Below are positions 1,358 through 24,900 of a DNA stretch of 64,000 bases, in pieces. Both the position numbers and the translations under genes were made by a program. Source of the DNA: Oscillospiraceae bacterium. Lineage in GTDB: Bacteria > Bacillota > Clostridia > Oscillospirales > Acutalibacteraceae. Below the pieces are notes generated by a model. That model made no database searches, was not told the DNA's origin, and saw only the letters and a program-made list of their open reading frames with translations. Positions within the stretch are counted from its first letter, which is position 1. Every line of letters starts with the position of its first letter. The stretch spans positions 488 to 64,487 of the forward strand of contig SVPV01000011.1 of assembly GCA_015065725.1 (NCBI GenBank). Direction: 5' to 3'.

Positions 1358-1386
1358 TTGACTTTCTTGTCCGTTTCTGTTAAAAT
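1358..1386 (+). promoter_or_regulatory. Sigma-A type promoter for the first BMC transcription unit
   Basis: TTGACT (1358-1363), 17-nt spacer, TAAAAT (1381-1386). It is preceded by a long T-rich tract (1320-1354) and followed by a GGAGG RBS before ATG 1436. Confidence 0.55.
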
Positions 1387-1435
1387 AGTATTCGTGAAAC
1401 TAGGGTGTTTTTCCGCCTTTGTAGGAGGTCATTAA

Positions 1436-1816
1436 ATGGATTTTGACAAGCTAATAAATAACAGTGAAAATAAAATGCGTATAATTCAAGAGTTAGTACC
1501 CGGTAAGCAGATAACTCTAGCCCACATAATTGCTAATCCGGACGAGATACTTTATCAAAAGCTAGGTCTTGACCCTGCTGAAAGCCACACAGGCACAGCA
1601 ATTGGCATTTTAACCGTAAGCCCAAGCGAAACAGCGATAATTGCGGGTGACATTGCAACCAAGGCTTCAGGTGCAAAGCTCGGCTTTGTGGACCGTTTCA
1701 GCGGCACCGTTATTATAACAGGCACCGTGTCAGAAGTTGAGGCATCTCTTAAAGCAATTACCGATTACATTTCTGAAAAGCTAGGCTTTTCGGTATGCGA
1801 AGTTACAAGAACATAA
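1436..1816 (+). CDS. BMC shell protein, circularly permuted PduU/EutS type
   Basis: IQELVPGKQITLAHIIANP...GILTVSPSETAIIAGDIATKASG...ITGTVSEVEASL parallels Salmonella PduU/EutS over its whole length, as recalled by eye. 126 aa. Confidence 0.9.
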   Translation: MDFDKLINNSENKMRIIQELVPGKQITLAHIIANPDEILYQKLGLDPAESHTGTAIGILTVSPSETAIIAGDIATKASGAKLGFVDRFSGTVIITGTVSEVEASLKAITDYISEKLGFSVCEVTRT

Positions 1817-2238
1817 TGAAAAAGCTTATATTAATGGGTAAAAGCGGTGCGGGTAAAACCACCCTTACCCAAGCACTTCGCGGTGAAAATGTTACATATA
1901 AAAAAACACAGTACATAAATTACGGTGATTTTTTGATAGATACCCCAGGTGAATATGCCGAGAACCGCCATTTAGGTGCCGCACTGGCACTCTACGCTTA
2001 CGAGGCTGATGTTGTGGGACTCTTGATTTCTGCTGACGACCAGTTTTCCCTATTTCCGCCAAACATAACATGTCTTGTAAACCGTGAGGTAATTGGCATT
2101 GTAACAAAGAAATATAAAGGTAATCCCGATAGGGCTGAAAGATGGCTAAGACTTTCGGGTTGTAAGACAGTTTTTAGAGTTGATTCCGTCACGGGCGACG
2201 GTGTTGACGATATTTTAAAGCACATAGGGATTTGCTAG
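1816..2238 (+). CDS. EutP/PduV family small GTPase (BMC-associated)
   Basis: P-loop GKSGAGKTTL, DTPGE and the size are typical of EutP/PduV. Start taken at ATG 1816 (TAATG overlap with the preceding stop) rather than the track's 1795. The last 3 codons and the stop lie inside the 80-nt repeat at 2228-2307. Confidence 0.85.
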   Translation: MKKLILMGKSGAGKTTLTQALRGENVTYKKTQYINYGDFLIDTPGEYAENRHLGAALALYAYEADVVGLLISADDQFSLFPPNITCLVNREVIGIVTKKYKGNPDRAERWLRLSGCKTVFRVDSVTGDGVDDILKHIGIC

Positions 2239-2307
2239 TATTTTAACAAAGCCACAGCACAAAATCCTTATTCCAAAATCTGATTCAGGTTTGAATGCTT
2301 TGGCTAG
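2228..2307 (+). repeat. 80-nt dispersed repeat, copy 1 (partner at 42527-42606, minus strand)
   Basis: GGATTTGCTAGTATTTTAACAAAGCCACAGCACAAAATCCTTATTCCAAAATCTGATTCAGGTTTGAATGCTTTGGCTAG matches the reverse complement of 42527-42606 at 73/80 positions (hand alignment, no gaps). Confidence 0.85.
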
Positions 2308-2402
2308 GTGCAAAAAAAGCACAATAAAGCCCGTTTTAGTGTCGAAAACAACAAAATACCAACAAAATTCGGTCAAAATCCAAAAAAAATACTTGTTTTT
2401 TG

Positions 2403-2431
2403 TTGACTTTACGCCGTTTATGTGGTATTAT
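2403..2431 (+). promoter_or_regulatory. Sigma-A type promoter (extended -10) for the aldolase-to-pduL unit
   Basis: TTGACT (2403-2408), 17-nt spacer, TG-n-TATTAT (2423-2431); 54 nt upstream of the aldolase ATG. Confidence 0.6.
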
Positions 2432-2484
2432 GTTGTTATAAAAAATGTAATCATAAATATAATCATAAAAAAGGAGTAAGATTT

Positions 2485-3282
2485 ATGGTAAACGAGTACG
2501 AAATCAAAAAACAAATTTGCGAAATCGGTAAGCGTATTTACGATCGCGGAATGGTTGCTGCTAATGACGGTAATATCTCTGTTAAGATTAGCGACAACGA
2601 ATTCCTCTGCACACCTACAGGTGTTAGTAAGGGCTTTATGACACCCGAGTACATCTGCAAGGTTGACAAGAACGGTAAGGTGCTTCAGGCTAACCCCGGT
2701 TTCAAGCCCTCTTCTGAAATTAAGATGCATATGCGTGTTTATAAGGAGCGTCCCGATGTTAAGTCGGTAGTTCACGCTCACCCGATGTATGCAACAGGCT
2801 TTGCTATTGCAGGCATTCCGCTAACACAGCCCATTATGCCTGAGGCTGTTATCGCTTTAGGTTGTGTTCCGATTGCTAAGTACGGCACACCCTCTACAGA
2901 AGAAATTCCGGATGCAGTAAGCGAGCATTTACAGTATTTTGACGCTGTTCTTCTTGAGAACCACGGTGCATTAGCATACAGCGACAGCCTTTTGAATGCT
3001 TATCACAAGATGGAGTCTGTTGAGTTCTATGCACAGCTTCTCTTCATTTCTCAGCAGTTAGGCGGACCTAAGGAACTTTCTGAAGCTCAGGTACAAAGAC
3101 TTTATGAGATTCGCCGTCAGTTCGGTCTTCCTGGAAAGCATCCTGCAAACCTTTGCCCCAACGCTAAAGAGGGTAAAGCAAGCTGTCACGGTTGCGGCGG
3201 AAGCTGCAGCGGCAAATGCTCAAATGAAAGCGATATGGTGGCTGAAATCACACGTCGCGTAATTGAGCAATTAGGTAAGTAA
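2485..3282 (+). CDS. Class II aldolase (L-fuculose-/rhamnulose-phosphate aldolase family) with C-terminal Cys-rich linker and encapsulation helix
   Basis: AANDGNISVK, SSEIKMH, VVHAHP and LLENHG align by eye with the Zn-His and active-site segments of E. coli FucA. AAGGAG RBS at 2471-2476 supports ATG 2485, not the track's 2422. The C-terminus is CPNAKEGKASCHGCGGSCSGKCSNESDMVAEITRRVIEQLGK. Confidence 0.9.
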   Translation: MVNEYEIKKQICEIGKRIYDRGMVAANDGNISVKISDNEFLCTPTGVSKGFMTPEYICKVDKNGKVLQANPGFKPSSEIKMHMRVYKERPDVKSVVHAHPMYATGFAIAGIPLTQPIMPEAVIALGCVPIAKYGTPSTEEIPDAVSEHLQYFDAVLLENHGALAYSDSLLNAYHKMESVEFYAQLLFISQQLGGPKELSEAQVQRLYEIRRQFGLPGKHPANLCPNAKEGKASCHGCGGSCSGKCSNESDMVAEITRRVIEQLGK

Positions 3283-3295
3283 TTGAGGTTTTATT

Positions 3296-3775
3296 ATGGA
3301 TGAAAAGGCCCTGCGTTCCATTGTAAATACGGTGGTACAGCAAATAAAGGCACCACAGGATATAACGCTCGATATAGCTTTAGCTCTTACTAAAAAGGTA
3401 AAGGCCAAAGCAAATGAAATGGGTGTTAAAGCGGTCGTCGCTGTTTCTAACAGAGCCGCTCGTCCGGTTCTGGTGGAATGTATGGACGATTCATATATTG
3501 CAAGCTATGATATAGCGGTGCAAAAAGCCTTTACCGTAGTATCGCTTAAGATGTCTACTTCAACACTAAAACCCCTCGCTCAACCGAACGGTCCTCTTTA
3601 CGGTATACAGTTTACTAACGACGGACAGATAGTAATATTCGGTGGTGGCGAACCGCTTTTAGATTCTAACGGCAACGTAATCGGTGGAATCGGCGTTAGC
3701 GGCGGTAGCGAAGAGCAAGACATTGCTCTGGCGGCTTACGGTAAGGAGATTTTTGAGAAAGGAAGCATATTTTAA
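3296..3775 (+). CDS. GlcG/HbpS/PduO-C-terminal-like (DUF336) haem-binding-family protein with N-terminal encapsulation helix
   Basis: AVVAVSNRAARPVLVECMDDS...AVQKAFTVVSL...IGGIGVSGGSEEQD is typical of DUF336. The N-terminus MDEKALRSIVNTVVQQIK is an amphipathic helix. Confidence 0.75.
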   Translation: MDEKALRSIVNTVVQQIKAPQDITLDIALALTKKVKAKANEMGVKAVVAVSNRAARPVLVECMDDSYIASYDIAVQKAFTVVSLKMSTSTLKPLAQPNGPLYGIQFTNDGQIVIFGGGEPLLDSNGNVIGGIGVSGGSEEQDIALAAYGKEIFEKGSIF

Positions 3776-4980
3776 TGGATATTAATTCTTCTAATATCGA
3801 GGAAATTGTTCGTCAGGTACTTGACAGTATGAACGGCAAGCCAGTAGCTGCTCCAAAGGCTGCAGGTGGACAAATTCCTACAAAATCCCGTGCTGCAATG
3901 CTTACAGCCCTCGAAAAATACGAGATTAAAGAGTTCAACATTCCAGAGCTTGGTGATGATGACATTTTAGTTAAGGTTGAAGGCTGCGGCGTTTGCGGTA
4001 CAGACGCACACGAATTTAAGCGTGACCCATTTGGTCTTATCCCACTTGTTTTAGGACATGAGGGTACAGGCGAAATCGTAAAGATGGGTAAAAACGTTAA
4101 GAAGGACAGTGCAGGCAAGCCCCTTAATATCGGCGACAAGGTTGTTACCTGTATGATATTTAAGGATGACCCGAACATAACAATGTTCGACCTTAATAAA
4201 CAAAACGTTGGCGAAGGTGCTGATGTTTACGGTCTTCTTCCCGATGACGACATTCACCTAAACGGTTGGTTTGCAGATTACATTGTAATCCGCGGCGGCT
4301 CTACCGTATTTAATGTAAGTGATTTAGATTTAGACTCACGTATACTTATCGAGCCATGTGCCGTACTTATTCACGCTGTTGAGCGTGCGAAGACTACAGG
4401 TATTCTTCGTTTTAATAGCCGCGTAGTAGTACAAGGCTGCGGACCTATCGGTCTTATATGTATAGCTATTCTTCGCACAATGGGTGTTGAGAATATCGTT
4501 GCAGTTGACGGTGAGGATAAGCGTCTTGATTTTGCACGTCAAATGGGTGCAAACGCTGTTGTTAACTTTAAGAATCATAAGGGTATTGAGGCTTTGGCTG
4601 AAGGCGTTAAGGAAGCATTTGGCGGCTACTATGCCGACTTTGCATTCCAATGCACAGGCTCACCTATCGCTCACGCTAACATTTATAAGTTCATCCGCAA
4701 AGGCGGCGGACTTTGTGAGCTTGGTTTCTTCATCAATGGTGGCGACGCTACTATTAACCCACACTTTGATATCTGTGCTAAGGAAATCACAACCGTTGGT
4801 TCTTGGGTATATACACTCCGCGATTATGCAACCACATTTGATTTCTTAAAGCGTGCTAAAGCTATCGGTATTCCGCTAGAGAAGCTTATAACACACAGAT
4901 TCCCACTTTCCGAAATTAATGAGGCACATATAACCAATCTTAAGATGGAAGGTTTAAAGATTGCTATCATTAATGAATAG
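3775..4980 (+). CDS. Zinc-dependent (MDR family) alcohol dehydrogenase with N-terminal encapsulation helix; predicted aldehyde reductase of the BMC
   Basis: CGVCGTDAHE, GHEGTGEIV and the GCGPIGL Rossmann motif. A ~35-aa N-terminal extension (SSNIEEIVRQVLDSMNG + PVAAPKAAGG linker) precedes the catalytic domain. TAATG overlap with the upstream gene. Confidence 0.85.
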   Translation: MDINSSNIEEIVRQVLDSMNGKPVAAPKAAGGQIPTKSRAAMLTALEKYEIKEFNIPELGDDDILVKVEGCGVCGTDAHEFKRDPFGLIPLVLGHEGTGEIVKMGKNVKKDSAGKPLNIGDKVVTCMIFKDDPNITMFDLNKQNVGEGADVYGLLPDDDIHLNGWFADYIVIRGGSTVFNVSDLDLDSRILIEPCAVLIHAVERAKTTGILRFNSRVVVQGCGPIGLICIAILRTMGVENIVAVDGEDKRLDFARQMGANAVVNFKNHKGIEALAEGVKEAFGGYYADFAFQCTGSPIAHANIYKFIRKGGGLCELGFFINGGDATINPHFDICAKEITTVGSWVYTLRDYATTFDFLKRAKAIGIPLEKLITHRFPLSEINEAHITNLKMEGLKIAIINE

Positions 4981-5002
4981 TTATCCAAGGGAGAGAAATT
5001 AA

Positions 5003-5317
5003 ATGGGTAAAGCAACAGGTATTGTTGAGGTTTACGGTCTTGTAGCTGCATTTGTTGCTTGTGATGCCGGTTGCAAAGCAGCCGACGTTACGGTTGAATA
5101 TTTCGACAAAAACAAACCCGGTAACCCCGACGAATTAACTGTTCCGCTTATTGTAGCAGTTAAGTTCAGAGGTACCGTGGCAGCAGTTGAGGCTGCTATA
5201 GAGGCGGCAAAGAATGCTGCCGAAGAGGTTTCGGGGGTTGTAACAACACACATTCTTACAAGCACCGAGCCTGACACAGAGGCTATGTTAAAGATAAACG
5301 CTTTTGATAAAAATTAA
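5003..5317 (+). CDS. BMC-H shell protein (divergent single BMC domain)
   Basis: [28 protein letters not shown]...[15 protein letters not shown] follows the Pfam00936 pattern, with an insertion ([17 protein letters not shown]). AGGGAG RBS. Confidence 0.8.
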
Positions 5318-5346
5318 AATTAAATTTACTATTGGAGGAAAATCAA

Positions 5347-5622
5347 ATGTCTAAAGAAGCTCTTGGTATGGTAGAAACTCGCGGTTTAACCGCAGCTATT
5401 GAAGCAGCAGATGCTATGGTAAAGGCTGCTGAGGTAACACTAATCGGCACCGAAAAAATCGGTTCCGGACTTGTATCTGTTATGGTTCGCGGCGACGTAG
5501 GAGCTGTTAAGGCTGCTGTTGAAGCTGGTTCTTCTTCTGCATCCAGACTAGGCGAGCTAGTTGCTGTTCACGTAATCCCCAGACCCCATGCAGATGTTGA
5601 GAAGATTCTTCCAAAGCTTTAA
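5347..5622 (+). CDS. BMC-H shell protein, PduA/EutM type
   Basis: [58 protein letters not shown] is the canonical PduA/EutM sequence. ATG 5347 follows a GGAGG RBS (5334-5338); the track start 5332 is a TTG inside the RBS. Confidence 0.93.
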
Positions 5623-5652
5623 TCTCATCCACGTTTGAGGAGTCGTTAAATT

Positions 5653-5946
5653 ATGAAGTCTATAGGACTGATAGAAGTATCGGGAGTAATTGCCGCGGTA
5701 GACTGTCTTGATATTATGTGCAAGTCGGCTGATGTAGAGCTTGTAACATGGGAAAGAAAACTAGGCGGCAGACTTGTTACTGTTGTGGTTGAAGGTAGTA
5801 TTTCAGCCGTAACCGCAGCGGTAGAAAACGCAATTGCTAGTGCAATAATAACTCCCTGTGCACATGCTGTAATTGCAAGCCCTCACGAAGAGGTAGAAAG
5901 ATTACTAAAAGTTAGTGCATCTAGAATTAATAAGGCAGGTAAATAG
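5653..5946 (+). CDS. BMC-H shell protein (divergent)
   Basis: [29 protein letters not shown]...[17 protein letters not shown] follows the BMC-domain pattern. GAGGAG RBS. Confidence 0.85.
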
Positions 5947-5948
5947 AA

Positions 5949-6317
5949 ATGGCAGAAGCAAAGAAAACTACTACAACAACAAAAAAAGAAACTGCAGAAG
6001 CAAAAGCACCTGCACCCGTTGTAAAGGAGGTAAAGAAAATGGCACTTGAAGCATTAGGTATGGTTGAAACCAGAGGTCTTGTAGCCGCTATTGAGGCTGC
6101 AGATGCTATGGTAAAGGCTGCTAACGTTGAGCTTATCGGCACTGAGAAAATCGGTTCCGGACTCGTATCTGTTATGGTTCGCGGCGACGTAGGAGCTGTT
6201 AAGGCTGCTGTTGAGGCTGGTTCCTCTTCGGCTAGTCATTTAGGCGAGCTTGTTGCTACACACGTAATTCCAAGACCTCACAATGATGTTGAGAAGATTC
6301 TTCCCACATTAAAGTAA
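5949..6317 (+). CDS. BMC-H shell protein, PduA/EutM type (long form; a 92-aa short form would start at 6039)
   Basis: The core [34 protein letters not shown]... is near-identical to the next gene. ATG 6039 has a perfect AAGGAGG RBS (6024-6030). ATG 5949 would add a 30-aa K/T/A-rich extension ([30 protein letters not shown]) but has only a weak RBS. Confidence 0.9.
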
Positions 6318-6363
6318 GTCTTAGAATATAAAAACTGTTAATCATTTTAAGGAGGATATAATT

Positions 6364-6642
6364 ATGGCACTTGAAGCATTAGGTATGGTTGAAACCAGAG
6401 GTCTTGTAGCTGCTATTGAGGCTGCAGATGCTATGGTAAAGGCTGCTAACGTTGAGCTTATCGGTACTGAGAAAATCGGTTCTGGACTCGTATCTGTTAT
6501 GGTACGTGGCGACGTAGGTGCAGTTAAGGCTGCTGTTGAAGCTGGTTCTTCTTCTGCAGGTCACTTAGGCGAAGTTATCGCTACTCACGTAATCCCCAGA
6601 CCTCATGGCGATGTTGAGAAGATTCTTCCCACATTAAAGTAA
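6364..6642 (+). CDS. BMC-H shell protein, PduA/EutM type (tandem paralogue)
   Basis: 92 aa with only a handful of differences from residues 31-122 of the previous gene. AAGGAGG RBS at the same spacing. Confidence 0.93.
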
Positions 6643-6656
6643 TTTAATTCTTTTAT

Positions 6657-6693
6657 GAGGGAGAGATTATTCTCTCCCTCGGGGCCCCTTTTT
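6657..6693 (+). terminator. Intra-operon hairpin / partial terminator after the BMC-H gene block
   Basis: GAGGGAGAGA-TTAT-TCTCTCCCTC (10-bp perfect stem, 6657-6680), then GGGGCCCC and TTTTT (6689-6693). It lies in the 109-nt gap before the pentamer gene. Confidence 0.55.
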
Positions 6694-6751
6694 CAAACTT
6701 CGATTTGAAAGCTAATTGTGAATATAACCTTACGAAAGAATAGGTGACACG

Positions 6752-7024
6752 ATGATTGTCGGTAAAGTAGTTGGAAGTATTGTTTCCACTAGAAAAAATG
6801 AAAATCTTGTAGGCTCCAAGTTTATGGTTATAGAGCCTGTTAAAAAGCTTGGCGACCCTAATCAAAAAATAGTTGCAATAGATAATGTAGGTGCAGGCAT
6901 TGGTGAAATAGTGCTTGTAGCCACCGGCAGTGCAGCAAGAATAGGCTGTGGCATGGAAGATTGCCCTGTAGATGCTGCCATAGTAGGAATTGTAGACAAC
7001 GGAATTGGTTTGCCGGAGCTATAG
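6752..7024 (+). CDS. BMC-P vertex (pentamer) protein, EutN/CcmL/PduN family
   Basis: MIVGKVVGSIVSTRKNENLVGSKFMVIEPV...GAGIGEIVLVATGSAAR is the typical Pfam03319 pattern. 90 aa. Confidence 0.9.
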   Translation: MIVGKVVGSIVSTRKNENLVGSKFMVIEPVKKLGDPNQKIVAIDNVGAGIGEIVLVATGSAARIGCGMEDCPVDAAIVGIVDNGIGLPEL

Positions 7025-7027
7025 AGA

Positions 7028-8350
7028 ATGGAACTTAATAAACTTAAAGATATCTTGCGTGACGGCGGTGTCGTAGGTGCAGGCGGAGCAGGTTTCCCCA
7101 CCTATGCAAAGTTAGACCAAAATGCCGATACGCTGATACTAAACTGTGCGGAGTGCGAACCGCTTTTAAAGCTTCACCGTCAGGTGTTAGAGCGTTATGC
7201 TAAAGAAATACTCCACACACTTAACTTAATCGCGAAAGCAGTAGAAGCAAAGCATGTGTATGTTGCTGTTAAAAGGTCATATCAAAAGACTATTGAGGCA
7301 GTAAAACCCTTGCTCAGCTTCTTTGAAAATATTGAAATATGTGAATTGCCGGAGGTTTATCCAGCCGGTGATGAGGTTGTTTTAACCTATGAGGTAACAG
7401 GTCGCGTGGTGCCTGCAGGCTCTATTCCGATAGCAGTAGGCGTTACGGTGCTTAATGTTGAAACCGTTTATAACGCTTACCGTGCATTAAACGGATTGCC
7501 TGTAACCTATAAGTTTGTAACAATAGCAGGTGCTGTTAATAATCCTGTTACTGTTCAAGCACCTATTGGTATTAAAATTAAAGAGTTGTTGTCACTTGCA
7601 GGCGGCGTTAATATAGAGAATCCTGCATTTTTAATGGGCGGTCCTATGATGGGCAAACTAGGCAGTGATTCTGAAATTGTTACCAAAACCACCAACGCTG
7701 TATTGGTTTTACCAAACGACCACCAAATAATTAAGAAAAAGCAAACAAAATCCTTTATTAATATGAAAAGGGCTATGGCGGCTTGCTGCCAATGCAGTTA
7801 TTGCACCCTTTTGTGTCCTAGAAATTTACTAGGTCACCCAATTGACCCCAGCGAGTTTATGAGGGTTGCTTCAAACTCGATTACAAACGAGGCTGAGCCC
7901 TACATAAATTCACTTTACTGCTCGTCTTGTGGTCTTTGCGAAATGTACTCTTGCGGACAGGGACTTTCTCCCCGTTCTTTACTTGAAAACTGCAAAACTA
8001 CATTAAGGCAGAATGGCTTAAAACCGACTCCGGTTGAGCCAAATGGCGTGTTTGAAGAAAGAAATCGCAGACAAGTTCCTATGGGACGTCTTTTAGCACG
8101 ACTTGGGCTTAACCCTTATAACAAAACGGCTCCTATGTCGGATATGTCGGTCAAAGCCGAACGTCTTTCAATTCTCTTGTCCCAACACATTGGTGCACCC
8201 GCTGTGCCTGTTGTGAAGCAGGGAGATAAAGTAAAAGAAAACCAGCTTATAGCCGAAGCCTCAGACGGTCTTAGCGTAGCAATACACTCCCCCGTTAACG
8301 GAACTGTTAAGGCAGTAGGCAAAAAAGCAATCATTATAATGGCTGATTAG
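7028..8350 (+). CDS. PduS-like / RnfC-family flavin and 4Fe-4S oxidoreductase
   Basis: GAGGAGFPT (nucleotide/FMN site of the Complex1_51K-RnfC family), an SLBB-like middle region, and two cluster motifs CCQCSYCTLLCP and CSSCGLCEMYSC. The C-terminal segment (GAPAVPVVKQGDKVKENQLIAE...VNGTVKAV) resembles a barrel-sandwich hybrid domain. Confidence 0.8.
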   Translation: MELNKLKDILRDGGVVGAGGAGFPTYAKLDQNADTLILNCAECEPLLKLHRQVLERYAKEILHTLNLIAKAVEAKHVYVAVKRSYQKTIEAVKPLLSFFENIEICELPEVYPAGDEVVLTYEVTGRVVPAGSIPIAVGVTVLNVETVYNAYRALNGLPVTYKFVTIAGAVNNPVTVQAPIGIKIKELLSLAGGVNIENPAFLMGGPMMGKLGSDSEIVTKTTNAVLVLPNDHQIIKKKQTKSFINMKRAMAACCQCSYCTLLCPRNLLGHPIDPSEFMRVASNSITNEAEPYINSLYCSSCGLCEMYSCGQGLSPRSLLENCKTTLRQNGLKPTPVEPNGVFEERNRRQVPMGRLLARLGLNPYNKTAPMSDMSVKAERLSILLSQHIGAPAVPVVKQGDKVKENQLIAEASDGLSVAIHSPVNGTVKAVGKKAIIIMAD

Positions 8351-8361
8351 GAGGTAACATC

Positions 8362-8910
8362 GTGAAAAAAGCACTTGCAATGGTTGAATATAAAACGGTT
8401 TCCTCCGGTATGATGGCAGCCGACATTATGGTAAAAACTGCCGAGGTCGAGATTATAGAAGCTACAACAGTCTGCCCCGGTAAATATATGGTTTTAATAA
8501 GCGGCATTTTAAGTGCGGTGCGTGCCGCAGTAGATGCTGCCACAGCAAAGTTGCCCGAAATGCTGATTGATAGCTTTGTGCTTGGTAATCCGCACGAATC
8601 TATTTTTGATGCACTTTACGGCACTAGTGATATCGGCAATCCCGATGCACTTGGTGTTATTGAAACCTTTTCGTCCTCTGCCGCAATAGTGGCAGCAGAT
8701 ATCGCCGCAAAAACCGCTTTGGTTGATTTAATTGAACTTCGTCTTTCACGCGGTATGTGCGGTAAATCCTATTTGCTGTTAACAGGTGAGATAGCTGCCG
8801 TTCAAGCCGCTATCGATAAGGCAAAGATGGCTTCGGGTGAGAACGGAATGTTCCTTGACAGTGCCGTTATTCCCCACCCTGACGAAAAAATGTGGCGTAG
8901 TATTCTTTAA
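8362..8910 (+). CDS. BMC-T tandem-domain shell protein, PduT-like
   Basis: Two BMC domains in 182 aa. Cys38 within TTVCPGKY (codon 8473-8475) sits at the position of the 4Fe-4S-ligating Cys of PduT. GTG start 7 nt after an AGGAGG RBS. Confidence 0.85.
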   Translation: MKKALAMVEYKTVSSGMMAADIMVKTAEVEIIEATTVCPGKYMVLISGILSAVRAAVDAATAKLPEMLIDSFVLGNPHESIFDALYGTSDIGNPDALGVIETFSSSAAIVAADIAAKTALVDLIELRLSRGMCGKSYLLLTGEIAAVQAAIDKAKMASGENGMFLDSAVIPHPDEKMWRSIL

Positions 8911-8944
8911 AATTTACTAAATATTAAGAAAGAGAGATTAACTT

Positions 8945-9703
8945 ATGCTTGCAATAGAAAGGCGTAATGCAATCCTCGCAAAGCTTTCCTCTAACGGAAA
9001 GGTAATCGTATCGGAATTAAGTGAAGAATTTAATGTAACCGAGGAAACTATCAGACGCGACCTTGAAAAGCTAGACCGAGAAGGTCTTGCAAAAAAGACC
9101 TATGGTGGTGCGGTTATAAATCAGAGTCTTAATGCCGACCTACCCTACCATGTGCGTAAGCGTTCAAACGTTGAACAAAAGGAAATGATAGCGGAAAAAA
9201 TCGCCCAAATGATACACGACGGTGATTATATAATGCTTGATTCAAGTTCAACATCTATTTACGTTACAAAATATATAAAAAATCTAAAAAATATAACCCT
9301 TATAACAAACTCGGTTGAAACTCTTATTGAGCTTGCTGATAAATCTGATTGGAAGGTGCTGTCAACGGGCGGTGCTCTTAGAAAAGGTGCTCTCTCCCTT
9401 GTTGGTGCTTCAGCAGAAAGAATGATAAGAAGCTTCCATGTTGATTTGGCGGTTTGTTCTTCAAAGGGAATAGATATGAATATGGGAATTACCGATTCAA
9501 ATGAGAAAGACTCTGAAATCAAGCGTGCGATATTTGATTCGGCAACACGCAAGATTTTAGCGGTTGATAGCTCAAAATTTGATAAAATCTCATTTGTAAG
9601 GGTTGGCAATATCAGTGACGTTGATGTAATTGTAACCGATACAAAGCCTGCTTCCCGTTGGATAGATTTTTTAGAAGAAAAGAATGTAGAACTCATTTAT
9701 TAG
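8945..9703 (+). CDS. DeoR family transcriptional regulator
   Basis: N-terminal HTH (KVIVSELSEEFNVTEETIRRDLEKLDREG) plus a DeoR C-terminal sugar-phosphate sensor domain. 252 aa. Confidence 0.9.
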   Translation: MLAIERRNAILAKLSSNGKVIVSELSEEFNVTEETIRRDLEKLDREGLAKKTYGGAVINQSLNADLPYHVRKRSNVEQKEMIAEKIAQMIHDGDYIMLDSSSTSIYVTKYIKNLKNITLITNSVETLIELADKSDWKVLSTGGALRKGALSLVGASAERMIRSFHVDLAVCSSKGIDMNMGITDSNEKDSEIKRAIFDSATRKILAVDSSKFDKISFVRVGNISDVDVIVTDTKPASRWIDFLEEKNVELIY

Positions 9704-9718
9704 AAAGGACTGTGTTTT

Positions 9719-10906
9719 GTGAAAATATTAGTTATAAACGCAGGAAGTTCCTCGCTTAAATATCAGCTTTTTGATATGGAAAGCGGAGATGTACTTGTTA
9801 AAGGTCTTTGTGAGCGTATTGGCTCGGGCGGTGAAATTACACATAAGCGTCCAAATAGTGAGCCTTATAAAACAGAGGCAGAATTCCCCACACACGAGGA
9901 AGCACTTGCTATGGTGCTTGACCTACTCGTAAGTAAGGAATACGGCTTTATAGAGAGCATCGATGAGATTGATGCCGTAGGTCACCGTATTGCACACGGC
10001 GGCGAAAAATACAAACAGTCAACACCTATTGATGACGAGGTTATAGCTTATCTCGAAACAATAGTTCCTATAAATCCCTTGCACGGACCTCCGGCAATTA
10101 AGGGTATGAAGGCTTGTAAACGCCTTATGGGCAATGTTCCGCAGGTTGGCGTATTTGATACTTCTTTCTATTCTAATATGGAGGATTTCCGTACCATCTA
10201 CCCCATTCCCTATGAGCTTTATGAGCAATATAAAATCCGTCGTTACGGATTCCACGGTACTTCACACCGCTATGTGTCGGCAAAGGCAGCCGAAATAGTT
10301 GGCAAACCGATTGAAGAACTTAAAATAGTAACCTGTCACTTGGGCAACGGCTCATCAATAACCGCAGTTGATAAGGGTATTGCAATAGATACTTCTATGG
10401 GCTTCACCCCACAAGAAGGTGTGCCGATGGGTACACGTAGCGGCTCTATTGACCCGACCGTTATCCCCTATATTATGAAGGCTACTAATATGAACGCCGA
10501 CGAGATTGAGGATTTACTTAACCGTAAGTCAGGTCTTTTAGGTGTCAGCGGTATTTCCAACGATAACCGTAATGTTGCAAAGGCAGCTAATGAAGGTAAC
10601 TACCGTGCAGGTCTTGCAATTAAAATGCTTATTAACAGCATCAAGAAAATAGTTGGTAGCTATGTTGCCGAGCTTAACGGTATTGACGTTCTTGTATTTA
10701 CCGCAGGTATCGGTGAAAACGATAAAAATCTTCGCCAGAAGGTTTGTGCTGATATGGATTTCTTCGGCATTAAGATTGATGAGGAATTAAACAATAAAGG
10801 CGAAATTAACATTTCGGCTAAAGATGCAAAGGTACAAACCTTGGTTATTCCAACTGATGAAGAATATATGATAGCACTTGACACTGCTAAGTTTTGTAAG
10901 GAGTGA
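9719..10906 (+). CDS. ackA: Acetate/propionate (short-chain acyl) kinase
   Basis: KILVINAGSSSLKYQLF, FHGTSH and IGEND-type motifs. GTG start. 395 aa. Confidence 0.9.
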   Translation: MKILVINAGSSSLKYQLFDMESGDVLVKGLCERIGSGGEITHKRPNSEPYKTEAEFPTHEEALAMVLDLLVSKEYGFIESIDEIDAVGHRIAHGGEKYKQSTPIDDEVIAYLETIVPINPLHGPPAIKGMKACKRLMGNVPQVGVFDTSFYSNMEDFRTIYPIPYELYEQYKIRRYGFHGTSHRYVSAKAAEIVGKPIEELKIVTCHLGNGSSITAVDKGIAIDTSMGFTPQEGVPMGTRSGSIDPTVIPYIMKATNMNADEIEDLLNRKSGLLGVSGISNDNRNVAKAANEGNYRAGLAIKMLINSIKKIVGSYVAELNGIDVLVFTAGIGENDKNLRQKVCADMDFFGIKIDEELNNKGEINISAKDAKVQTLVIPTDEEYMIALDTAKFCKE

Positions 10907-10912
10907 TTTTAA

Positions 10913-12361
10913 ATGGCATTAACAATTTCCGAGGCTGAAATCCGTCAGGTAGTAAGCCAAGTATTAAATAAGGTTCAGTCGGCACCCGCCGCTAAGGATT
11001 GGGATAGCACCCAGTATGCCGGCAGAAAGCTTATCGGCATTTATGAGGATATGAACGATGCCATTGCCGCTGCAAACGAGGGCTATAAGGCTGTTCGTTC
11101 AATGACAGTTGAGCAAAGAGAAAAAATTATTACAGAGATTAGAAAGCTAACCTATGCAGAAGCTCCCATAATGGCAAAGATAGGCGTTGCAGAAACAGGT
11201 ATGGGTAAGGTTGAGCATAAAAGACTTAAGCACATTCTAGTAGCTGATAAAACCCCAGGTACTGAGGATATCGTATCCAACGCTAAGACAGGCGATAGCG
11301 GACTCACGCTCATAGAAATGGCTCCGTTTGGCGTTGTAGGTGCTATTACACCTAGTACAAACCCGAGTGAGACCGTTATTTGTAACAGTATTGGTATGAT
11401 AGCTGCAGGAAACGGTGTTGTATTCAACCCACACCCTAACGCTATTGCAACCTCTAACTACGCAGTTGACCTTGTAAACCGTGCTTCAAAAGCAGCAGGC
11501 GGTCCCGAAGTTTTAGTATGCTCTATGAAAAAGCCTACTTTAGAATCTGCGGCAGTTATGCAGTCACACCCACTTATCCGTCTACTTGTTTGCACAGGCG
11601 GACCTGGTGTTGTAAAGGCTGTTCTTTCCTCAGGTAAAAAGGCTATCGGTGCGGGTGCCGGTAACCCCCCTGTTATTGTTGACGATACTGCCGACATCAA
11701 GAAGGCAGGTAAGGATATAATTGACGGTTGTACATTCGATAACAACCTACCCTGCATTGCAGAAAAGGAAGTTTTTGCATTCAGAAATATTGCTGACGAG
11801 CTTATCTCGGTTATGCTTAAAAACGGTGCTTATAAAATTGATGCCGCACAGGCAGAACAGCTTGCAAAGATTGTTCTTGTAGAAAAGACCGGCAAAGACG
11901 GCAAGACACGTAAAATCGTTAACCGTGAGTGTGTTGGCCGTGATGCAGATGTTATTCTTGCTAAAATCGGCGTAAATGTAAGCAAGGATATCCGTTGCAT
12001 TATTTGCGAAACCGACTTTAATCATCCCTTCGTTCAAGAAGAGCTTATGATGCCTATTCTACCGATAGTTCGTGTTGATAACATTGACCAGGCTATTGAG
12101 TACGGTGTTAAGGCAGAGCATGGCAATCGCCACACTGCACATATGCATTCAAAGAATATTGATAATCTTTCCCGCTTTGCAAAGGCTGTAGAAACCACTA
12201 TATTTGTTAAGAATGCTCCTTCCTATGCAGGTATCGGCTTCGGCGGTGAGGGTCATACAACCTTTACTATTGCAGGTCCTACCGGTGAGGGAATTACCTC
12301 TGCTCGTAGCTTTACACGTCAACGCCGTTGCGTAATGGCAGACAGCTTCCGCATTATATAA
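10913..12361 (+). CDS. CoA-acylating aldehyde dehydrogenase (PduP/EutE family) with N-terminal encapsulation helix
   Basis: EutE/PduP-like length and sequence, with the catalytic-Cys context NNLPCIAEKE. N-terminus MALTISEAEIRQVVSQVLNKVQ followed by an A/P linker. Confidence 0.9.
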   Translation: MALTISEAEIRQVVSQVLNKVQSAPAAKDWDSTQYAGRKLIGIYEDMNDAIAAANEGYKAVRSMTVEQREKIITEIRKLTYAEAPIMAKIGVAETGMGKVEHKRLKHILVADKTPGTEDIVSNAKTGDSGLTLIEMAPFGVVGAITPSTNPSETVICNSIGMIAAGNGVVFNPHPNAIATSNYAVDLVNRASKAAGGPEVLVCSMKKPTLESAAVMQSHPLIRLLVCTGGPGVVKAVLSSGKKAIGAGAGNPPVIVDDTADIKKAGKDIIDGCTFDNNLPCIAEKEVFAFRNIADELISVMLKNGAYKIDAAQAEQLAKIVLVEKTGKDGKTRKIVNRECVGRDADVILAKIGVNVSKDIRCIICETDFNHPFVQEELMMPILPIVRVDNIDQAIEYGVKAEHGNRHTAHMHSKNIDNLSRFAKAVETTIFVKNAPSYAGIGFGGEGHTTFTIAGPTGEGITSARSFTRQRRCVMADSFRII

Positions 12362-12375
12362 AAGGAGATTTTATA

Positions 12376-13029
12376 ATGGCTTACGATGCTTCTTTAATTT
12401 CGGAAATCGTTAATAGAGTTATGGCAGAATGCAATATTCCTGCCAGTAATAACGATGGCGATATTCCTGTAGGCGTTTCAAACCGCCACATACATTTAAC
12501 ACATGAGCATGTTGAAACCCTCTTTGGTAAGGGATATCAATTAACTCCACTAAAGGACCTTTCCCAACCAGGTCAGTACGCTTGTAAGGAGGTTCTTACA
12601 ATAGTAGGTCCGTCCCTTCGTCCTATTGAAAATGTTCGCGTTTTAGGACCCGAGCGTAAAGCTTCTCAGGTTGAAATTTCCCGTACAGACTCCTTTACCT
12701 TAAAGGTAAAGCCACCTGTAAGAGAATCGGGCGATATTAAAGGCTCTGCAGGCGTTACAATTATAGGACCTAAGGGTGTTGTAACACTAGATGAGGGTTG
12801 CATTATTGCTAACCGCCACATTCATATGAGTCTTGATGAGGGTGCCGCTTTCGGACTTAAGGACGGCGACTATGTTGACGTTGAGGCAAAGGGTGCCAGA
12901 CGTACAATGTTCTATGATGTACAGGTACGTGTACATAAGGATTTCCGTCTTGAAATGCACATTGATACTGATGATGCTAATGCCGCAGGTCTTGGCAACG
13001 GCTCGAAAGTAAAGCTTATTAAAAGATAA
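12376..13029 (+). CDS. pduL: Phosphate acyltransferase PduL with N-terminal encapsulation helix
   Basis: Two PduL repeats (VGVSNRHIHLT and IIANRHIHMS). AAAGGAG RBS supports ATG 12376 rather than the track's 12328. N-terminus MAYDASLISEIVNRVMAECN. Confidence 0.9.
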   Translation: MAYDASLISEIVNRVMAECNIPASNNDGDIPVGVSNRHIHLTHEHVETLFGKGYQLTPLKDLSQPGQYACKEVLTIVGPSLRPIENVRVLGPERKASQVEISRTDSFTLKVKPPVRESGDIKGSAGVTIIGPKGVVTLDEGCIIANRHIHMSLDEGAAFGLKDGDYVDVEAKGARRTMFYDVQVRVHKDFRLEMHIDTDDANAAGLGNGSKVKLIKR

Positions 13030-13039
13030 TTTTTTGTTG

Positions 13040-13073
13040 GGCTGTCAGACATTTGTCTGACAGCCATATTTTT
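13040..13073 (+). terminator. Intrinsic terminator ending the BMC operon
   Basis: GGCTGTCAGAC-ATTT-GTCTGACAGCC perfect hairpin (13040-13065) followed by ATATTTTT. Confidence 0.8.
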
Positions 13074-13098
13074 AAGTAAAGTAACGGTAGGTGAAAAA

Positions 13099-13926
13099 AT
13101 GTATTCAAGGGTTTATCTTGAAATCACCAATATATGTAATAAAAACTGCTCTTTTTGCCATAAAACTAAAAGAGAACCTAAAAGTCTAACACTTTCTGAA
13201 TTTGATTTAATAACCGATAAGCTTATAGGTATTACAGAATATCTTTATCTGCACCTTATGGGTGAACCGCTAATCCACCCGCTTATATCTGATTTTGTTG
13301 AATTAGCAACCAAAAAAGGCTTTAAAGTAGCAATTACTACTAACGGCACCTTGCTTAATAAGGTTGGTGACAAATTACTGTCAGCAGGACTTTATAAACT
13401 AAATATTTCTCTGCATAGCTTTGAAGACGAGGATAAAAACGCTTACGACAAATATATTAACAACTGCATTGAGTTTGCTGATAAAAGTAGTAAAGTTGGC
13501 GTGCTTACCGTTTTTAGACTTTGGAACAACGGTTTTGACGGCGGTAGAAATGATGACATATTATCCATACTTCAAAGTAAGCTTTCTGGCGAATGGCAAC
13601 AAGGCTCCAGAGGATATAGAATACGAAATAAGCTACACCTTGAATACGGCGACCGTTTTACTTGGCCCGACATTAACGCACCCTTTATTTCAGATAATGT
13701 TTTTTGTTATGGACTGCGTGACCATTTCGGTATACTATCTGACGGTACGGTTGTTCCCTGTTGTCTTGATAGCGATGGTATAGTAAAGCTTGGAAATGTT
13801 TTTGAAAGCTCTCTAAAGGAAATACTAAACACACCTCGTGCTAAAGCTATTTTTGACGGCTTTACATCTCGAACGCCCAGTGAAGAGCTTTGTAAGCGTT
13901 GCGGCTATGCACAAAGGTTTAAATAA
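13099..13926 (+). CDS. Radical SAM protein with C-terminal SPASM/twitch-like Cys-rich domain
   Basis: CNKNCSFC (CxxxCxxC) at residues 13-20. C-terminal cysteines (FCYGL, VVPCCLDSDG, CKRCGYA). 275 aa. Confidence 0.75.
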   Translation: MYSRVYLEITNICNKNCSFCHKTKREPKSLTLSEFDLITDKLIGITEYLYLHLMGEPLIHPLISDFVELATKKGFKVAITTNGTLLNKVGDKLLSAGLYKLNISLHSFEDEDKNAYDKYINNCIEFADKSSKVGVLTVFRLWNNGFDGGRNDDILSILQSKLSGEWQQGSRGYRIRNKLHLEYGDRFTWPDINAPFISDNVFCYGLRDHFGILSDGTVVPCCLDSDGIVKLGNVFESSLKEILNTPRAKAIFDGFTSRTPSEELCKRCGYAQRFK

Positions 13927-14091: not shown

Positions 14092-15477
14092 GTGATTTTT
14101 TTGTTTGAGATTTCAAACAAGTCTAACCTTTTAGAAGAGGACAATTATAAATATTCGCTACAGGATGTAAGCGAGCCTAATTTGTTCCGCGACTTTTATA
14201 GCTATACCGATATTCCAAAGGTTGCATTCAACCACCGTCGCGTGCCGATTGATATGCCTAAAGAAATTTGGATAACCGACACCTCACTTCGTGACGGTCA
14301 GCAATCGGTTGAGCCATATTCGGTTGAACAGATAGTACAGCTATATAAATATATGTCAAAGCTTGGCGGTCCGTTTGGTATTATCCGCCAGACCGAGTTT
14401 TTTGTTTATAGCAAAAAAGACCGCAAGGCATTAGAGAAGTGTCAGGAATTAGGTCTTAAGTTCCCCGAAATCACCACATGGATAAGGGCTAATAAGGAAG
14501 ACTTTAAATTAGTTAAAGATTTAGGCATTAGAGAAACGGGAATTTTAGTTTCTTGCAGTGACTACCATATATTTAAAAAGCTTAAAATGACAAGACGTCA
14601 GGCTATGGATACATATCTTGCGGCAGTAGCCGAGGCTTTTGAGGCAGGCGTTATGCCCCGTTGTCATTTAGAAGATGTCACAAGAGCCGATTTCTACGGC
14701 TTTGTTGTACCATTTGTAAACGAGCTTATGAAGATGTCAAGAGATGCGGGTATACCTGTAAGAATCCGTGCGTGTGACACCATGGGTTACGGTATTCCTT
14801 ATACCGAAGCCGCACTTCCCCGCAGTGTTCCCGGAATTATTTACGGTTTACGTCACTTTTCAGAAGTGCCCAGCGAAATGCTTGAATGGCACGGCCATAA
14901 CGATTTTTATAAGGCTGTTACAAATGCCTCTACCGCTTGGCTTTACGGTGCTTCGGCAGTTAACTGCTCACTACTTGGAATTGGCGAGCGTACAGGTAAT
15001 ATTCCGCTTGAAGCTATGATTATGGAATATGCCTCACTTCGCGGCTCTTTTGACGGTATGGACCCGACAGTTATTACCGAAATTGCAGATTATTTCAAGC
15101 ACGAGATGGGTTACACCATACCACCTATGACACCATTTGTTGGAAGAAACTTTAATGTTACAAGGGCAGGCATACACGCCGACGGTCTTTTAAAGGACGA
15201 AGAAATCTATAATATTTTTGATACAGATAAAATTCTTAACCGTCCTGTATCCGTTCTTATCGGCAAGGCATCAGGTCTTGCAGGTATAGCTTATTGGATT
15301 AACCAAAACTACTCACTCAAAGGCGATGATATGGTTGATAAAAAGAGTGAGCTTGTAGTTAAGCTTAAGGAATGGATTGATAAGGAATACGAAGACGGTA
15401 GACAAACCACCCTTTCAAACGACGAACTTGAAGAAAAAATAAGCGAGCTTTCGGGAGGTAAATATGATAGAACATAA
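14092..15477 (+). CDS. Re-face citrate synthase (homocitrate/2-isopropylmalate synthase-like DRE-TIM enzyme)
   Basis: TDTSLRDGQQS and EWHGHNDF motifs of the HMGL-like family. The length, N-terminal region and operon context (aconitase + IDH, no other citrate synthase) match clostridial Re-citrate synthase. The start is ambiguous (GTG 14092 or TTG 14101). Confidence 0.7.
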   Translation: MIFLFEISNKSNLLEEDNYKYSLQDVSEPNLFRDFYSYTDIPKVAFNHRRVPIDMPKEIWITDTSLRDGQQSVEPYSVEQIVQLYKYMSKLGGPFGIIRQTEFFVYSKKDRKALEKCQELGLKFPEITTWIRANKEDFKLVKDLGIRETGILVSCSDYHIFKKLKMTRRQAMDTYLAAVAEAFEAGVMPRCHLEDVTRADFYGFVVPFVNELMKMSRDAGIPVRIRACDTMGYGIPYTEAALPRSVPGIIYGLRHFSEVPSEMLEWHGHNDFYKAVTNASTAWLYGASAVNCSLLGIGERTGNIPLEAMIMEYASLRGSFDGMDPTVITEIADYFKHEMGYTIPPMTPFVGRNFNVTRAGIHADGLLKDEEIYNIFDTDKILNRPVSVLIGKASGLAGIAYWINQNYSLKGDDMVDKKSELVVKLKEWIDKEYEDGRQTTLSNDELEEKISELSGGKYDRT

Positions 15478-16105
15478 AACAATATCATTAGCGGACCAAG
15501 TTTTTGACCATTTAGAAACCGATATTTTAAGCGGTAAATATCAGCGTGGGGAAATTCTTACAGAGGCAAAGCTTTGTCAGGAACTAGGGGTTAGCCGTAC
15601 ACCCATACGTGAAGCCTTACGCCGTCTCTCTCAAGAGCATATAATTGAGGAATCCACAAAAGGCTCTATAGTAATAGGTATCTCTGAACGCGACCTTGAA
15701 GATATATTTATGATAAGAGAGTGTGTTGAGGGACTTGCCGCACAGGTTGCCGCAAAAAGCCGTACGGCAGAGCAATTAAATGAGCTTCGCAACGCTTTAG
15801 AGCTTCAGGAATTTTATCTTACTAAAATGGATTCTGAACAAATAAAAGTTATGGATAACCGTTTTCACGAGCTTATATATAAAGCTTGCGGCGGCTTCAC
15901 CTTTTATGACACACTAGAGCCGCTTCATAAGAAAATACAAAAGTATAGAAGAGCTGCTGTAAACAATAAAAGCCGTGCTACCGCCTCGGTTGAAGAGCAT
16001 AAAAAGATTTTTGAAGCAATAGCCGACCAAAACGGTGACGAGGCTCGTAAATATGCAATCGAGCATATTAGAAACGCACATAGTCACATTGTGAGAAAGG
16101 ATTAA
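15464..16105 (+). CDS. GntR family (FadR/FCD subfamily) transcriptional regulator
   Basis: HTH LTEAKLCQELGVSRTPIREALRRL plus an all-helical FCD-type C-terminal domain. Overlaps the upstream stop by 14 nt. Confidence 0.88.
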   Translation: MIEHKTISLADQVFDHLETDILSGKYQRGEILTEAKLCQELGVSRTPIREALRRLSQEHIIEESTKGSIVIGISERDLEDIFMIRECVEGLAAQVAAKSRTAEQLNELRNALELQEFYLTKMDSEQIKVMDNRFHELIYKACGGFTFYDTLEPLHKKIQKYRRAAVNNKSRATASVEEHKKIFEAIADQNGDEARKYAIEHIRNAHSHIVRKD

Positions 16106-16110
16106 TAAAA

Positions 16111-18036: not shown

Positions 18037-18054
18037 TAAAGGGAGATTTTAAAA

Positions 18055-19262: not shown

Positions 19263-19389
19263 GTACAGATATTCATAACTAATCTTAAACGCAAGATGGA
19301 AAAAATTAAAAAAACAGTTTATACAAATATATAATTGAAAAAAATGTCAAAATGTTATATAATGCAGATAATAGGGTGTGAGGATTTAT

Positions 19390-23478: not shown

Positions 23479-23494
23479 ATTATCGTCCTTAAAA

Positions 23495-24871: not shown

Positions 24872-24900
24872 AAACAAAACTGCCTTTCAAAATAATTTCA

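Follow-up and report, generated by a model that had tools for sequence, protein, structure and literature searches.

Gene content of the microcompartment operon

The window analyzed here is a stretch of 64,000 nucleotides (64 kb) from an Oscillospiraceae bacterium (GenBank assembly GCA_015065725.1, contig SVPV01000011.1, positions 488 to 64,487). It contains an operon for a bacterial microcompartment (BMC) in which a class II aldolase is the only candidate signature enzyme. As detailed below, the locus is evidently a derivative of the GRM5 type of microcompartment, from which the genes for the glycyl-radical enzyme (GRE) and its activating enzyme (AE) were removed by a clean deletion. Genes were called by Pfam and NCBIfam profile scans of six-frame open reading frames (ORFs).

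The operon comprises 17 ORFs, all of them intact and encoded on the forward strand, in the order PduU-PduV-aldolase-DUF336-Zn-ADH-five BMC-H-BMC-P-PduS-PduT-DeoR-AckA-AldDH-PduL (Zn-ADH: Zn-dependent alcohol dehydrogenase; AldDH: CoA-acylating aldehyde dehydrogenase). A consensus scan places a sigma-70-like promoter at 1358-1386 (TTGACT-17-TAAAAT, with the -35 box at 1358-1363 and the -10 box at 1381-1386). The region between FeoA and PduU (1199-1435, 237 nt) also contains T-rich GGTTTT/TGTTTTT boxes and a ribosome-binding site (RBS; AGGAGG, 1423-1428). An intrinsic terminator with an 11-bp stem is found at 13040-13065 (annotated as 13040-13075; seven GC pairs, then a T-rich tail). Because the promoter-like site and this strong terminator bracket the genes, the span 1358-13066 is a single operon. 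An Rfam scan of the operon detected no riboswitch or other RNA family. The initial annotation had delimited the locus in the same way, and its limits coincide with the promoter and the terminator. The profile scans confirmed the positions of its eight shell genes and of all its cargo genes, with minor start shifts for the aldolase, PduL and BMC-H2.

The shell gene set consists of five BMC-H, one BMC-Hp, one BMC-P and one BMC-T. The first gene (1436-1816, 126 aa; PF00936, 7e-12) codes for a circularly permuted BMC-H protein (BMC-Hp) of the PduU/EutS type, which scores 112 bits against the NCBIfam EutS model, below the cut-off of 123 bits. The only Cys of this PduU homolog is close to the C-terminus and, in our informal reading, its position would exclude an Fe-S site of the GrpU type. 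The five BMC-H genes, all assigned to PF00936, are contiguous. BMC-H1 (5003-5317, 104 aa; 3e-18) and BMC-H3 (5653-5946, 97 aa; 3e-19) are divergent hexamer proteins. BMC-H2 (5347-5622; 3e-30) is canonical and PduA/J-like. Its ORF opens with a TTG at 5332, but the ATG at 5347 is the likely start because the ortholog from the metagenome contig L095 has 91 aa. BMC-H4 (5949-6317, 122 aa; 2e-30) combines a canonical core with an N-terminal extension rich in Lys, Thr and Ala. BMC-H5 (6364-6642, 92 aa; 2e-30) is canonical and a paralog of H2 and H4. The vertex is represented by a single gene for a BMC-P pentamer protein (6752-7024; PF03319, 2e-29). The BMC-T protein (8362-8910; PF00936 with two domains, 1e-42) is a PduT-like tandem protein, scoring 119 bits against TIGR02526 (cut-off 250.3 bits). 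It has a pore Cys at position 38 which, by analogy with PduT structures, would be a 4Fe-4S ligand.

The class II aldolase (FucA type, 266 aa, with a Cys-rich linker) is encoded at 2482-3282 (PF00596, 2e-50). Its ORF spans 2422-3282, but the ATG at 2482 is the most likely start because thousands of homologs have 263-268 aa. A candidate internal promoter precedes the gene (2403-2431, TTGACT-17-TATTAT; consensus scan only). Among solved structures, the L-fuculose-phosphate aldolases 4c24 and 1fua come nearest, and three stretches of the aldolase (PSSE, HAH and NHG) align with 4c24. These presumably contain the catalytic Glu and the Zn-ligand His residues of FucA.

The aldolase gene lies between those for a small GTPase of the PduV/EutP family (1795-2238; PF10662, 1e-45) and a DUF336/HbpS-like protein, which resembles the C-terminal domain of PduO (3296-3775; PF03928, 8e-33). 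The Zn-ADH (3775-4980; PF00107, PF08240) is of the GRM5 "lactaldehyde reductase" type. Downstream of the BMC-P gene, a PduS-like flavo-iron-sulfur oxidoreductase is encoded (7028-8350; PF01512, PF10531, PF13534, PF13375), which has two Cys-rich 4Fe-4S motifs. The PduT gene is followed by that for a DeoR-family regulator (8945-9703; PF08220, PF00455) with a helix-turn-helix and a sugar-phosphate sensor domain. The remaining genes code for a kinase of the acetate/propionate family (9719-10906; PF00871, 4e-139; TIGR00016, 475 bits), the AldDH (10913-12361; NF011927, 675 bits) and a PduL-type phosphotransacylase (12376-13029; PF06130, 3e-79; NF011652, 273 bits). The ORF for PduL opens with a TTG at 12328, the ATG at 12376 being the likely start; its orthologs have 215 aa.

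Several enzymes carry terminal amphipathic helices of the kind that target cargo to the shell. The aldolase has a C-terminal encapsulation peptide (residues 253-266; hydrophobic moment, muH, 0.72). N-terminal encapsulation peptides are found in the Zn-ADH (helix at residues 7-20, muH 0.66, with peptide and linker comprising about 37 aa) and in the AldDH (helix at residues 9-22). Helices resembling such peptides are present in the DUF336 protein (residues 4-17, muH 0.62) and at the N-terminus of PduL. The kinase is presumably cytosolic, because it is devoid of a terminal extension.

Other candidate aldehyde-generating enzymes

The aldolase had been singled out as the sole candidate aldehyde generator, and this was corroborated. 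A tblastn search of the entire 64 kb with a GRM5-type GRE and its activase returned no match, and none of the annotated ORFs of the window codes for a PFL-like protein, a B12-dependent diol dehydratase (PduCDE) or an ethanolamine lyase. All other large ORFs are housekeeping genes. A different signature enzyme might have been encoded just beyond the window edge. None was found in the contigs that share the FeoA-PduU junction (see below), where, as in the window, the left flank consists of FeoA and FeoB, both on the reverse strand.

Two gene pairs or genes with a superficial resemblance to the missing functions were examined and rejected. The ORF pair at 44205-47199 (736 aa and 263 aa) codes for a RecD2 helicase and a ComF-like phosphoribosyltransferase rather than for a PFL-type enzyme and its activase. 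The gene at 13099-13926 is not an activase remnant: its product is of the SPASM type, it is located past the terminator, and it shows no similarity to the GRM5 AE. This gene (forward strand, 275 aa), which directly follows the terminator, is the only radical-SAM gene in the window; no such radical-SAM/SPASM gene was seen beside related loci where the downstream flank could be examined.

Comparison with GRM5 loci and the deletion junction

Relatives of the aldolase were confirmed in 577 genome-contig stretches, and the 80 closest loci retrieved, from species-representative genomes, were used for locus comparison. These are from gut Clostridia, represented by metagenome-assembled genomes (MAGs; Acutalibacteraceae, Oscillospiraceae, Christensenellaceae, Borkfalkia), together with the isolate Mediterraneibacter hominis NSJ-55. 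The aldolase is at least 81% identical in each of the 80 loci, and the proteins of the window map to most of them in a matching operon order. The acetate/propionate kinase is encoded in only part of these loci.

In 65 of the 75 informative loci, genes for a GRE (842 aa, PFL-like/Gly_radical) and an AE (263 aa, a radical-SAM activase) are part of the locus. Where the genes are arranged as in the window, this pair is located directly upstream of PduU. A full-length match (1254 bits) to the 1,2-propanediol dehydratase of Roseburia inulinivorans (5i2a) was obtained for the GRE from the closest relative in the species-representative set (L008). In two metagenome contigs (L095 and L096), the genes follow exactly the order of the window, preceded by GRE and AE. 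When the ORFs flanking the 80 loci were clustered, GRE and AE were the only recurrent neighbors, and genes for a fucose/rhamnose isomerase, kinase or transporter were not found among them.

A third GRM5 arrangement, which came to light in the AldDH-based metagenome scan described below, is represented by L144, L147, L155, L166, L168 (metagenome) and L076. In this arrangement, DeoR (on the opposite strand) and AckA are upstream of the aldolase, and the locus closes at its 3' end with GRE-AE-PduU. If such a contig is truncated, it can be mistaken for a GRE-less locus and can therefore not be scored as one.

The site of the deletion can be specified. The operon is 80% identical to that of L008 at the nucleotide level (2334-13032), and the gene order in L008 is FeoB(-) FeoA(-) / GRE AE PduU, while it is FeoA(-) / PduU in the window. 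Downstream of the junction, nucleotide homology to L008 resumes at 2334, ahead of the candidate internal promoter. The 237-nt spacer of the window can be aligned in 13 GRM5 loci with the sequence that precedes the GRE start codon, the aligned features including the T-rich GGTTTT/TGTTTTT boxes, the -35 box (TTGAC) and the -10 box (TAAAAT). As the spacer thus matches the promoter that normally precedes GRE, exactly two ORFs are missing, and PduU is now fused to the ancestral promoter/operator.

The junction is present in six JGI contigs (L001-L006) with 99.6-100% nucleotide identity, and in an NCBI MAG contig (L087, GCA_964385985.1) with 91%. Because seven independent contigs reproduce it, it is not a mis-assembly. 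When metagenome contigs were scanned for the exact junction pattern, no match was obtained, so the short JGI contigs are not part of that collection. In a metagenome scan based on AldDH, the closest matches were at most 87% identical, so that the window's own clade is absent from the collection.

Recurrence of GRE loss and selection on the remaining genes

Loss of GRE is not confined to this lineage but has taken place several times. On the aldolase tree (80 species), GRE-less loci are spread across several clades, and further examples were detected in metagenomes (L140, L142). In GRE-less lineages, the genes that remain (AldDH, PduL, PduS and PduT among them) are under purifying selection. 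Comparison of the window with its GRE-less relative L087 gave ratios of nonsynonymous to synonymous substitution rates (dN/dS) of 0.02 for PduU and 0.05 for PduV. A second comparison is provided by L049 and L066, GRE-less sisters that share their upstream neighbor, so that the loss of GRE predates their split. Wherever a ratio could be measured, shell genes included, dN/dS is 0.00-0.10, with dS mostly at about 1-1.65. The values for the aldolase, ADH, AldDH, PduL and PduS are 0.02-0.07 (dS about 1-1.65). PduT has a dN of 0.05 at saturated dS, and DeoR likewise has a low dN at saturated dS. These low ratios argue that the reductive and the oxidative branch are both still functional.

Two loci are more strongly reduced. 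L018 (10001-15740) has a minimal GRE-less locus that consists of the aldolase, DUF336, one BMC-H, one BMC-P, PduS, PduT, AckA and PduL, and lacks ADH, AldDH, PduU, PduV and DeoR. L012 (10001-10801) contains a lone aldolase gene, the product of which is 88% identical to that of the window and full-length, including the C-terminal encapsulation-peptide region. Its neighbors are unrelated (a protein kinase, a helicase, an Fe-hydrogenase and HrcA), and no BMC genes are found within the available flanks (10 kb upstream, about 5 kb downstream).

Conservation across bacterial families is uneven. Amino acid sequence identities are 81-93% for the aldolase and 77-95% for the Zn-ADH, compared with 52-85% for PduU, PduV, DUF336 and AldDH. 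The high values suggest either very strong constraint or a recent horizontal spread of the locus.

Some GRM5-family loci with an alternative gene order (L049, 19195-20474; L066, 18990-20267; also L068 and L078) code for an ATPase of the ParA/MinD type (259 aa) and a small ParB_N-like protein (162 aa), directly following DeoR. The pair is reminiscent of the McdAB system for carboxysome positioning and, by analogy, could position microcompartments.

Relation to known microcompartment types

The GRM5 gene set includes DeoR, a PduS/PduT pair, a class II aldolase, DUF336 and a Zn-type ADH (Axen 2014, PMC4207490; Ferlez 2019, PMC6325248), with the PF00107/PF08240 pair defining the GRM5 lactaldehyde reductase (PMC6325248). 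The window shares these gene families, together with the PduU-type shell protein, PduV, several BMC-H, a single BMC-P, the kinase, AldDH and PduL, with the GRM5 loci of Clostridium phytofermentans and Roseburia inulinivorans, and has their order in common with L095/L096. Its aldolase (PF00596) and Zn-ADH both carry terminal amphipathic helices, the PduS/PduT pair is present, and a GrpU-type Fe-S BMC-Hp is absent according to the informal reading given above. The genes are orthologous to and syntenic with those of bona fide GRM5 loci, and the promoter region is conserved. The AldDH is of the Cphy1178 type: it is 61% identical to this GRM5 enzyme from C. phytofermentans (PDB 4C3S, the top PDB match), and the catalytic-Cys motif NNLPCIAEKE is conserved. 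What the window lacks are the defining components, a GRE (PF02901 and PF01228) and an adjacent radical-SAM AE. Propionaldehyde can therefore not be made in cis.

By gene content, this aldolase-only form belongs to the kind of locus cataloged as "PVM-like", with PVMlike and GRM5like as the two candidate formal labels. Such loci were already suspected to be GRM5 fragments (Axen 2014, PMC4207490), and gut species carrying them have been listed (Asija 2021). According to Sutter 2021 (PMC8217296), PVM-like loci occur in Clostridia and Bacilli and their AldDH, phosphotransacylase and BMC-P are closest to those of GRM5; the number of "PVMlike" loci is given there as 36-57. The window agrees with this description. 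The host, judged by its close relatives probably a member of the Acutalibacteraceae, belongs to the Firmicutes (these relatives are all Clostridia MAGs or isolates), DeoR is present, and the aldolase is the only signature enzyme, without GRE, PduCDE or EutBC. The AldDH is GRM5-related by its top PDB match, and PduL and BMC-P are so by their position in the locus. Most of the original PVM-like examples from Axen lack an ADH, while the window keeps the full core.

The initial annotation had considered the locus to be a possibly novel version, from Firmicutes, of the PVM organelle of planctomycetes, with additional PDU-type accessories and a Zn-type ADH. As the locus maps to an already described type, novelty was not borne out; this is no new kind of organelle, and a BMC specialist will not be surprised by it. 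The presumed accessories are the normal GRM5 kit, as illustrated by synteny with L095/L096. Lactaldehyde handling, which had been borrowed from the PVM scheme, is still the most plausible chemistry, and the same reactions have been put forward for the Planctomyces limnophilus PVM organelle (Erbilgin 2014). The locus itself, however, is no relative of it. PVM loci are found in Planctomycetes/Verrucomicrobia, have a different gene order, use an Ldh/Mdh-type dehydrogenase instead of a Zn-ADH, and lack PduS, PduT, PduU, PduV and DUF336, all of which are present in the window. Their definition, as laid out in Supplementary Data 2 of PMC8217296, includes a triplet of BMC-P alongside two BMC-H, whereas the window combines a single BMC-P with five BMC-H, one BMC-Hp and one BMC-T. 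With its single BMC-P, its Zn-ADH and its Clostridia host, the window thus does not represent a PVM proper.

It is very improbable that the locus is an independent, possibly uncataloged Firmicutes variant of PVM that recruited PDU-type accessories: the combination of aldolase, AldDH, PduL, kinase and ADH is common to both, but each of these accessories is orthologous to and syntenic with its GRM5 counterpart, only one BMC-P replaces the triplet, and the type is already cataloged (PMC4207490, PMC8217296, PMC8156839). As judged from these comparisons, the operon originated by deletion of GRE and AE rather than by descent from PVM, and the likeness to PVM is due to convergence through loss.

With PDU, the window shares PduL, a PduP-type AldDH, homologs of PduS, PduT, PduU and PduV, and the PduO-C-like DUF336 protein. 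It differs by the absence of PduCDE, the reactivase, the B12 adenosyltransferase and a PduB-type BMC-T. Because PduCDE is found neither in the operon nor elsewhere in the window, it is not a PDU locus. The shared parts evidently came through GRM5.

In BMC catalogs, PVM-like loci of gut Firmicutes are listed without a settled origin or function. What is added here is a direct deletion junction, the recurrent loss of GRE, and selection after this loss.

Predicted pathway and alternative explanations

We favor, with moderate confidence, the interpretation that the locus is a GRM5-family operon for fucose/rhamnose which, after loss of GRE and AE, now represents an aldolase-only form that dismutates lactaldehyde. 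A cytosolic ketose-1-phosphate (L-fuculose-1-phosphate or L-rhamnulose-1-phosphate) would induce the operon via DeoR and enter the shell. There, the encapsulated aldolase would cleave it into dihydroxyacetone phosphate, which would exit to glycolysis, and L-lactaldehyde. With the dehydratase missing, lactaldehyde would be the only aldehyde available and would be dismutated. Part of it would be reduced by the encapsulated Zn-ADH with NADH, and the resulting 1,2-propanediol would be excreted. The encapsulated AldDH would convert the remainder to lactyl-CoA, thereby regenerating NADH. PduL would then form lactyl-phosphate and recycle CoA, and the cytosolic kinase would release lactate under formation of ATP. 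In this scheme, NAD+ and CoA would be recycled internally by the paired ADH and AldDH/PduL branches, while PduS and PduT may carry surplus electrons across the shell.

Lactaldehyde is the expected product because the aldolase is at least 81% identical to aldolases that are co-encoded with a propanediol dehydratase. PduP-type enzymes interconvert lactoyl-CoA and lactaldehyde, though poorly (PMC6304458). By analogy, the AldDH step on lactaldehyde is plausible.

If loci of this kind work as proposed, GRM5-like loci without GRE are to be scored in metabolic predictions as producers of 1,2-propanediol and lactate, not of propionate.

Several observations weigh against this interpretation. The aldolase scores only 92 bits against the nearest solved FucA, and its specificity is thus unproven. 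Its NCBIfam matches are spread over OtnC, FucA, ribulose-1-phosphate aldolase and MtnB without reaching any equivalog cut-off, and even the top match, OtnC with 141 bits, falls well short of the cut-off of that model. Two hydrophobic residues of the AldDH tunnel, corresponding to I421 and I433 of Cphy1178, are retained; Tuck et al. (PMC4762007) argued from them for propionaldehyde and against hydroxylated aldehydes. These residues were considered as a discriminator, but GRE-less and GRE-containing loci agree at both positions, so that no retuning is visible. No fucose/rhamnose isomerase, kinase or transporter is encoded in the 64-kb window. An FGGY kinase (36108-37613), considered as a fuculokinase or rhamnulokinase, turned out to be a glycerol kinase. 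A diol dehydratase, either of the GRE type or B12-dependent, could be encoded outside the window. Finally, the more strongly reduced loci L012 and L018 indicate that in some lineages the locus does decay once GRE is lost.

The main rival reading is a dehydratase acting in trans, which we consider unlikely. GRE and AE, or PduCDE, would be encoded elsewhere in the genome and targeted to the shell, so that the full GRM5 pathway would operate. As in C. phytofermentans, lactaldehyde would then be converted via 1,2-propanediol to propionaldehyde and further to propionyl-CoA or propanol. With its 61% identity to Cphy1178 and the conserved I421/I433 equivalents, the AldDH is typical of GRM5 enzymes of the propionaldehyde type. 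PduS and PduT, for which a role in supplying the activase with electrons has been proposed (PMC6325248), are still present. The location of GRE is also variable, with GRE-AE being at the 3' end in L076, L144, L147 and L155. Yet GRE/AE homologs are absent throughout the 64 kb, and the relatives that have the window's arrangement all carry the pair in cis, at the 5' end. Moreover, PVM-like loci are given without satellite loci in Supplementary Data 2 of the catalog (PMC8217296).

We regard it as improbable that the operon is an inactive remnant of a pathway disabled by the deletion, with the other genes still to decay. The existence of progressively reduced relatives (L012 and L018) speaks for this reading. 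In the window, however, the ORFs, promoter, RBS and terminator are all intact, and the junction persists in a lineage that has diverged by 9% at the nucleotide level, with the low dN/dS values for PduU and PduV (0.02-0.05) reported above. The genes of L049/L066 for which a ratio could be measured do not look like decaying genes either (0.00-0.10).

We likewise give little credence to an aldolase that acts on another ketose-1-phosphate, with the organelle handling an aldehyde other than lactaldehyde that fits the hydrophobic AldDH tunnel. Such substrates might be D-ribulose-1-phosphate, yielding glycolaldehyde, or 5-deoxy- or 5-methylthio-ribulose-1-phosphate, yielding acetaldehyde or (methylthio)acetaldehyde. 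The spread of the top matches over four models below their equivalog cut-offs, the hydrophobic pocket of the AldDH and the lack of nearby fuc/rha genes are in line with this option. It is opposed by the close similarity (at least 81% identity) of the aldolase to those from loci with a 1,2-propanediol dehydratase, an enzyme that makes sense only if lactaldehyde is converted to propanediol. Also, the GRM5 loci of C. phytofermentans respond to fucose and rhamnose (cited in PMC4207490, PMC6325248 and PMC4762007).

Beyond lactaldehyde dismutation in the window itself, it is tempting to speculate that loss of GRE is a recurrent, selection-maintained switch to an oxygen-insensitive, lactaldehyde-dismutating organelle, in which PduS, PduT and DUF336 have a GRE-independent job. 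We put this forward only tentatively. These proteins are under selection with neither GRE nor AE in cis, which would call for such a job, e.g., an export of electrons that rebalances NADH; for PduS and PduT, the data hint at GRE-independent roles. If the proposal is true, the output would switch from propionate/propanol to 1,2-propanediol, available to cross-feeders in herbivore and human guts, and the view that PduS, PduT and DUF336 serve glycyl-radical activation would have to be revised. GRE-less loci are a natural experiment on the roles of these three proteins without the radical enzyme.

Other features of the window

A gene cluster on the forward strand at 14092-19209 codes for an HMGL-type synthase, a GntR/FCD regulator, an aconitase and an isocitrate dehydrogenase. 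It looks like an oxidative branch of the tricarboxylic acid cycle leading to 2-oxoglutarate. The HMGL-type synthase resembles homocitrate and isopropylmalate synthases, and is possibly a Re-citrate synthase.

Two ORFs at 19378-21911 (forward strand) have a GC content of 28%, as compared to about 40% elsewhere, and may represent a horizontally acquired island. One product has 414 aa and ends in a zinc ribbon at the C-terminus; the second, of 430 aa, is without a Pfam match.

On the reverse strand, a T-box leader was detected at 24930-25183 (Rfam, 117.6 bits). It is upstream of the genes for a class II aminoacyl-tRNA synthetase (23495-24877) and the aspartate-ammonia ligase AsnA (22489-23511), which suggests tRNA-sensed control of a putative asnS-asnA operon.

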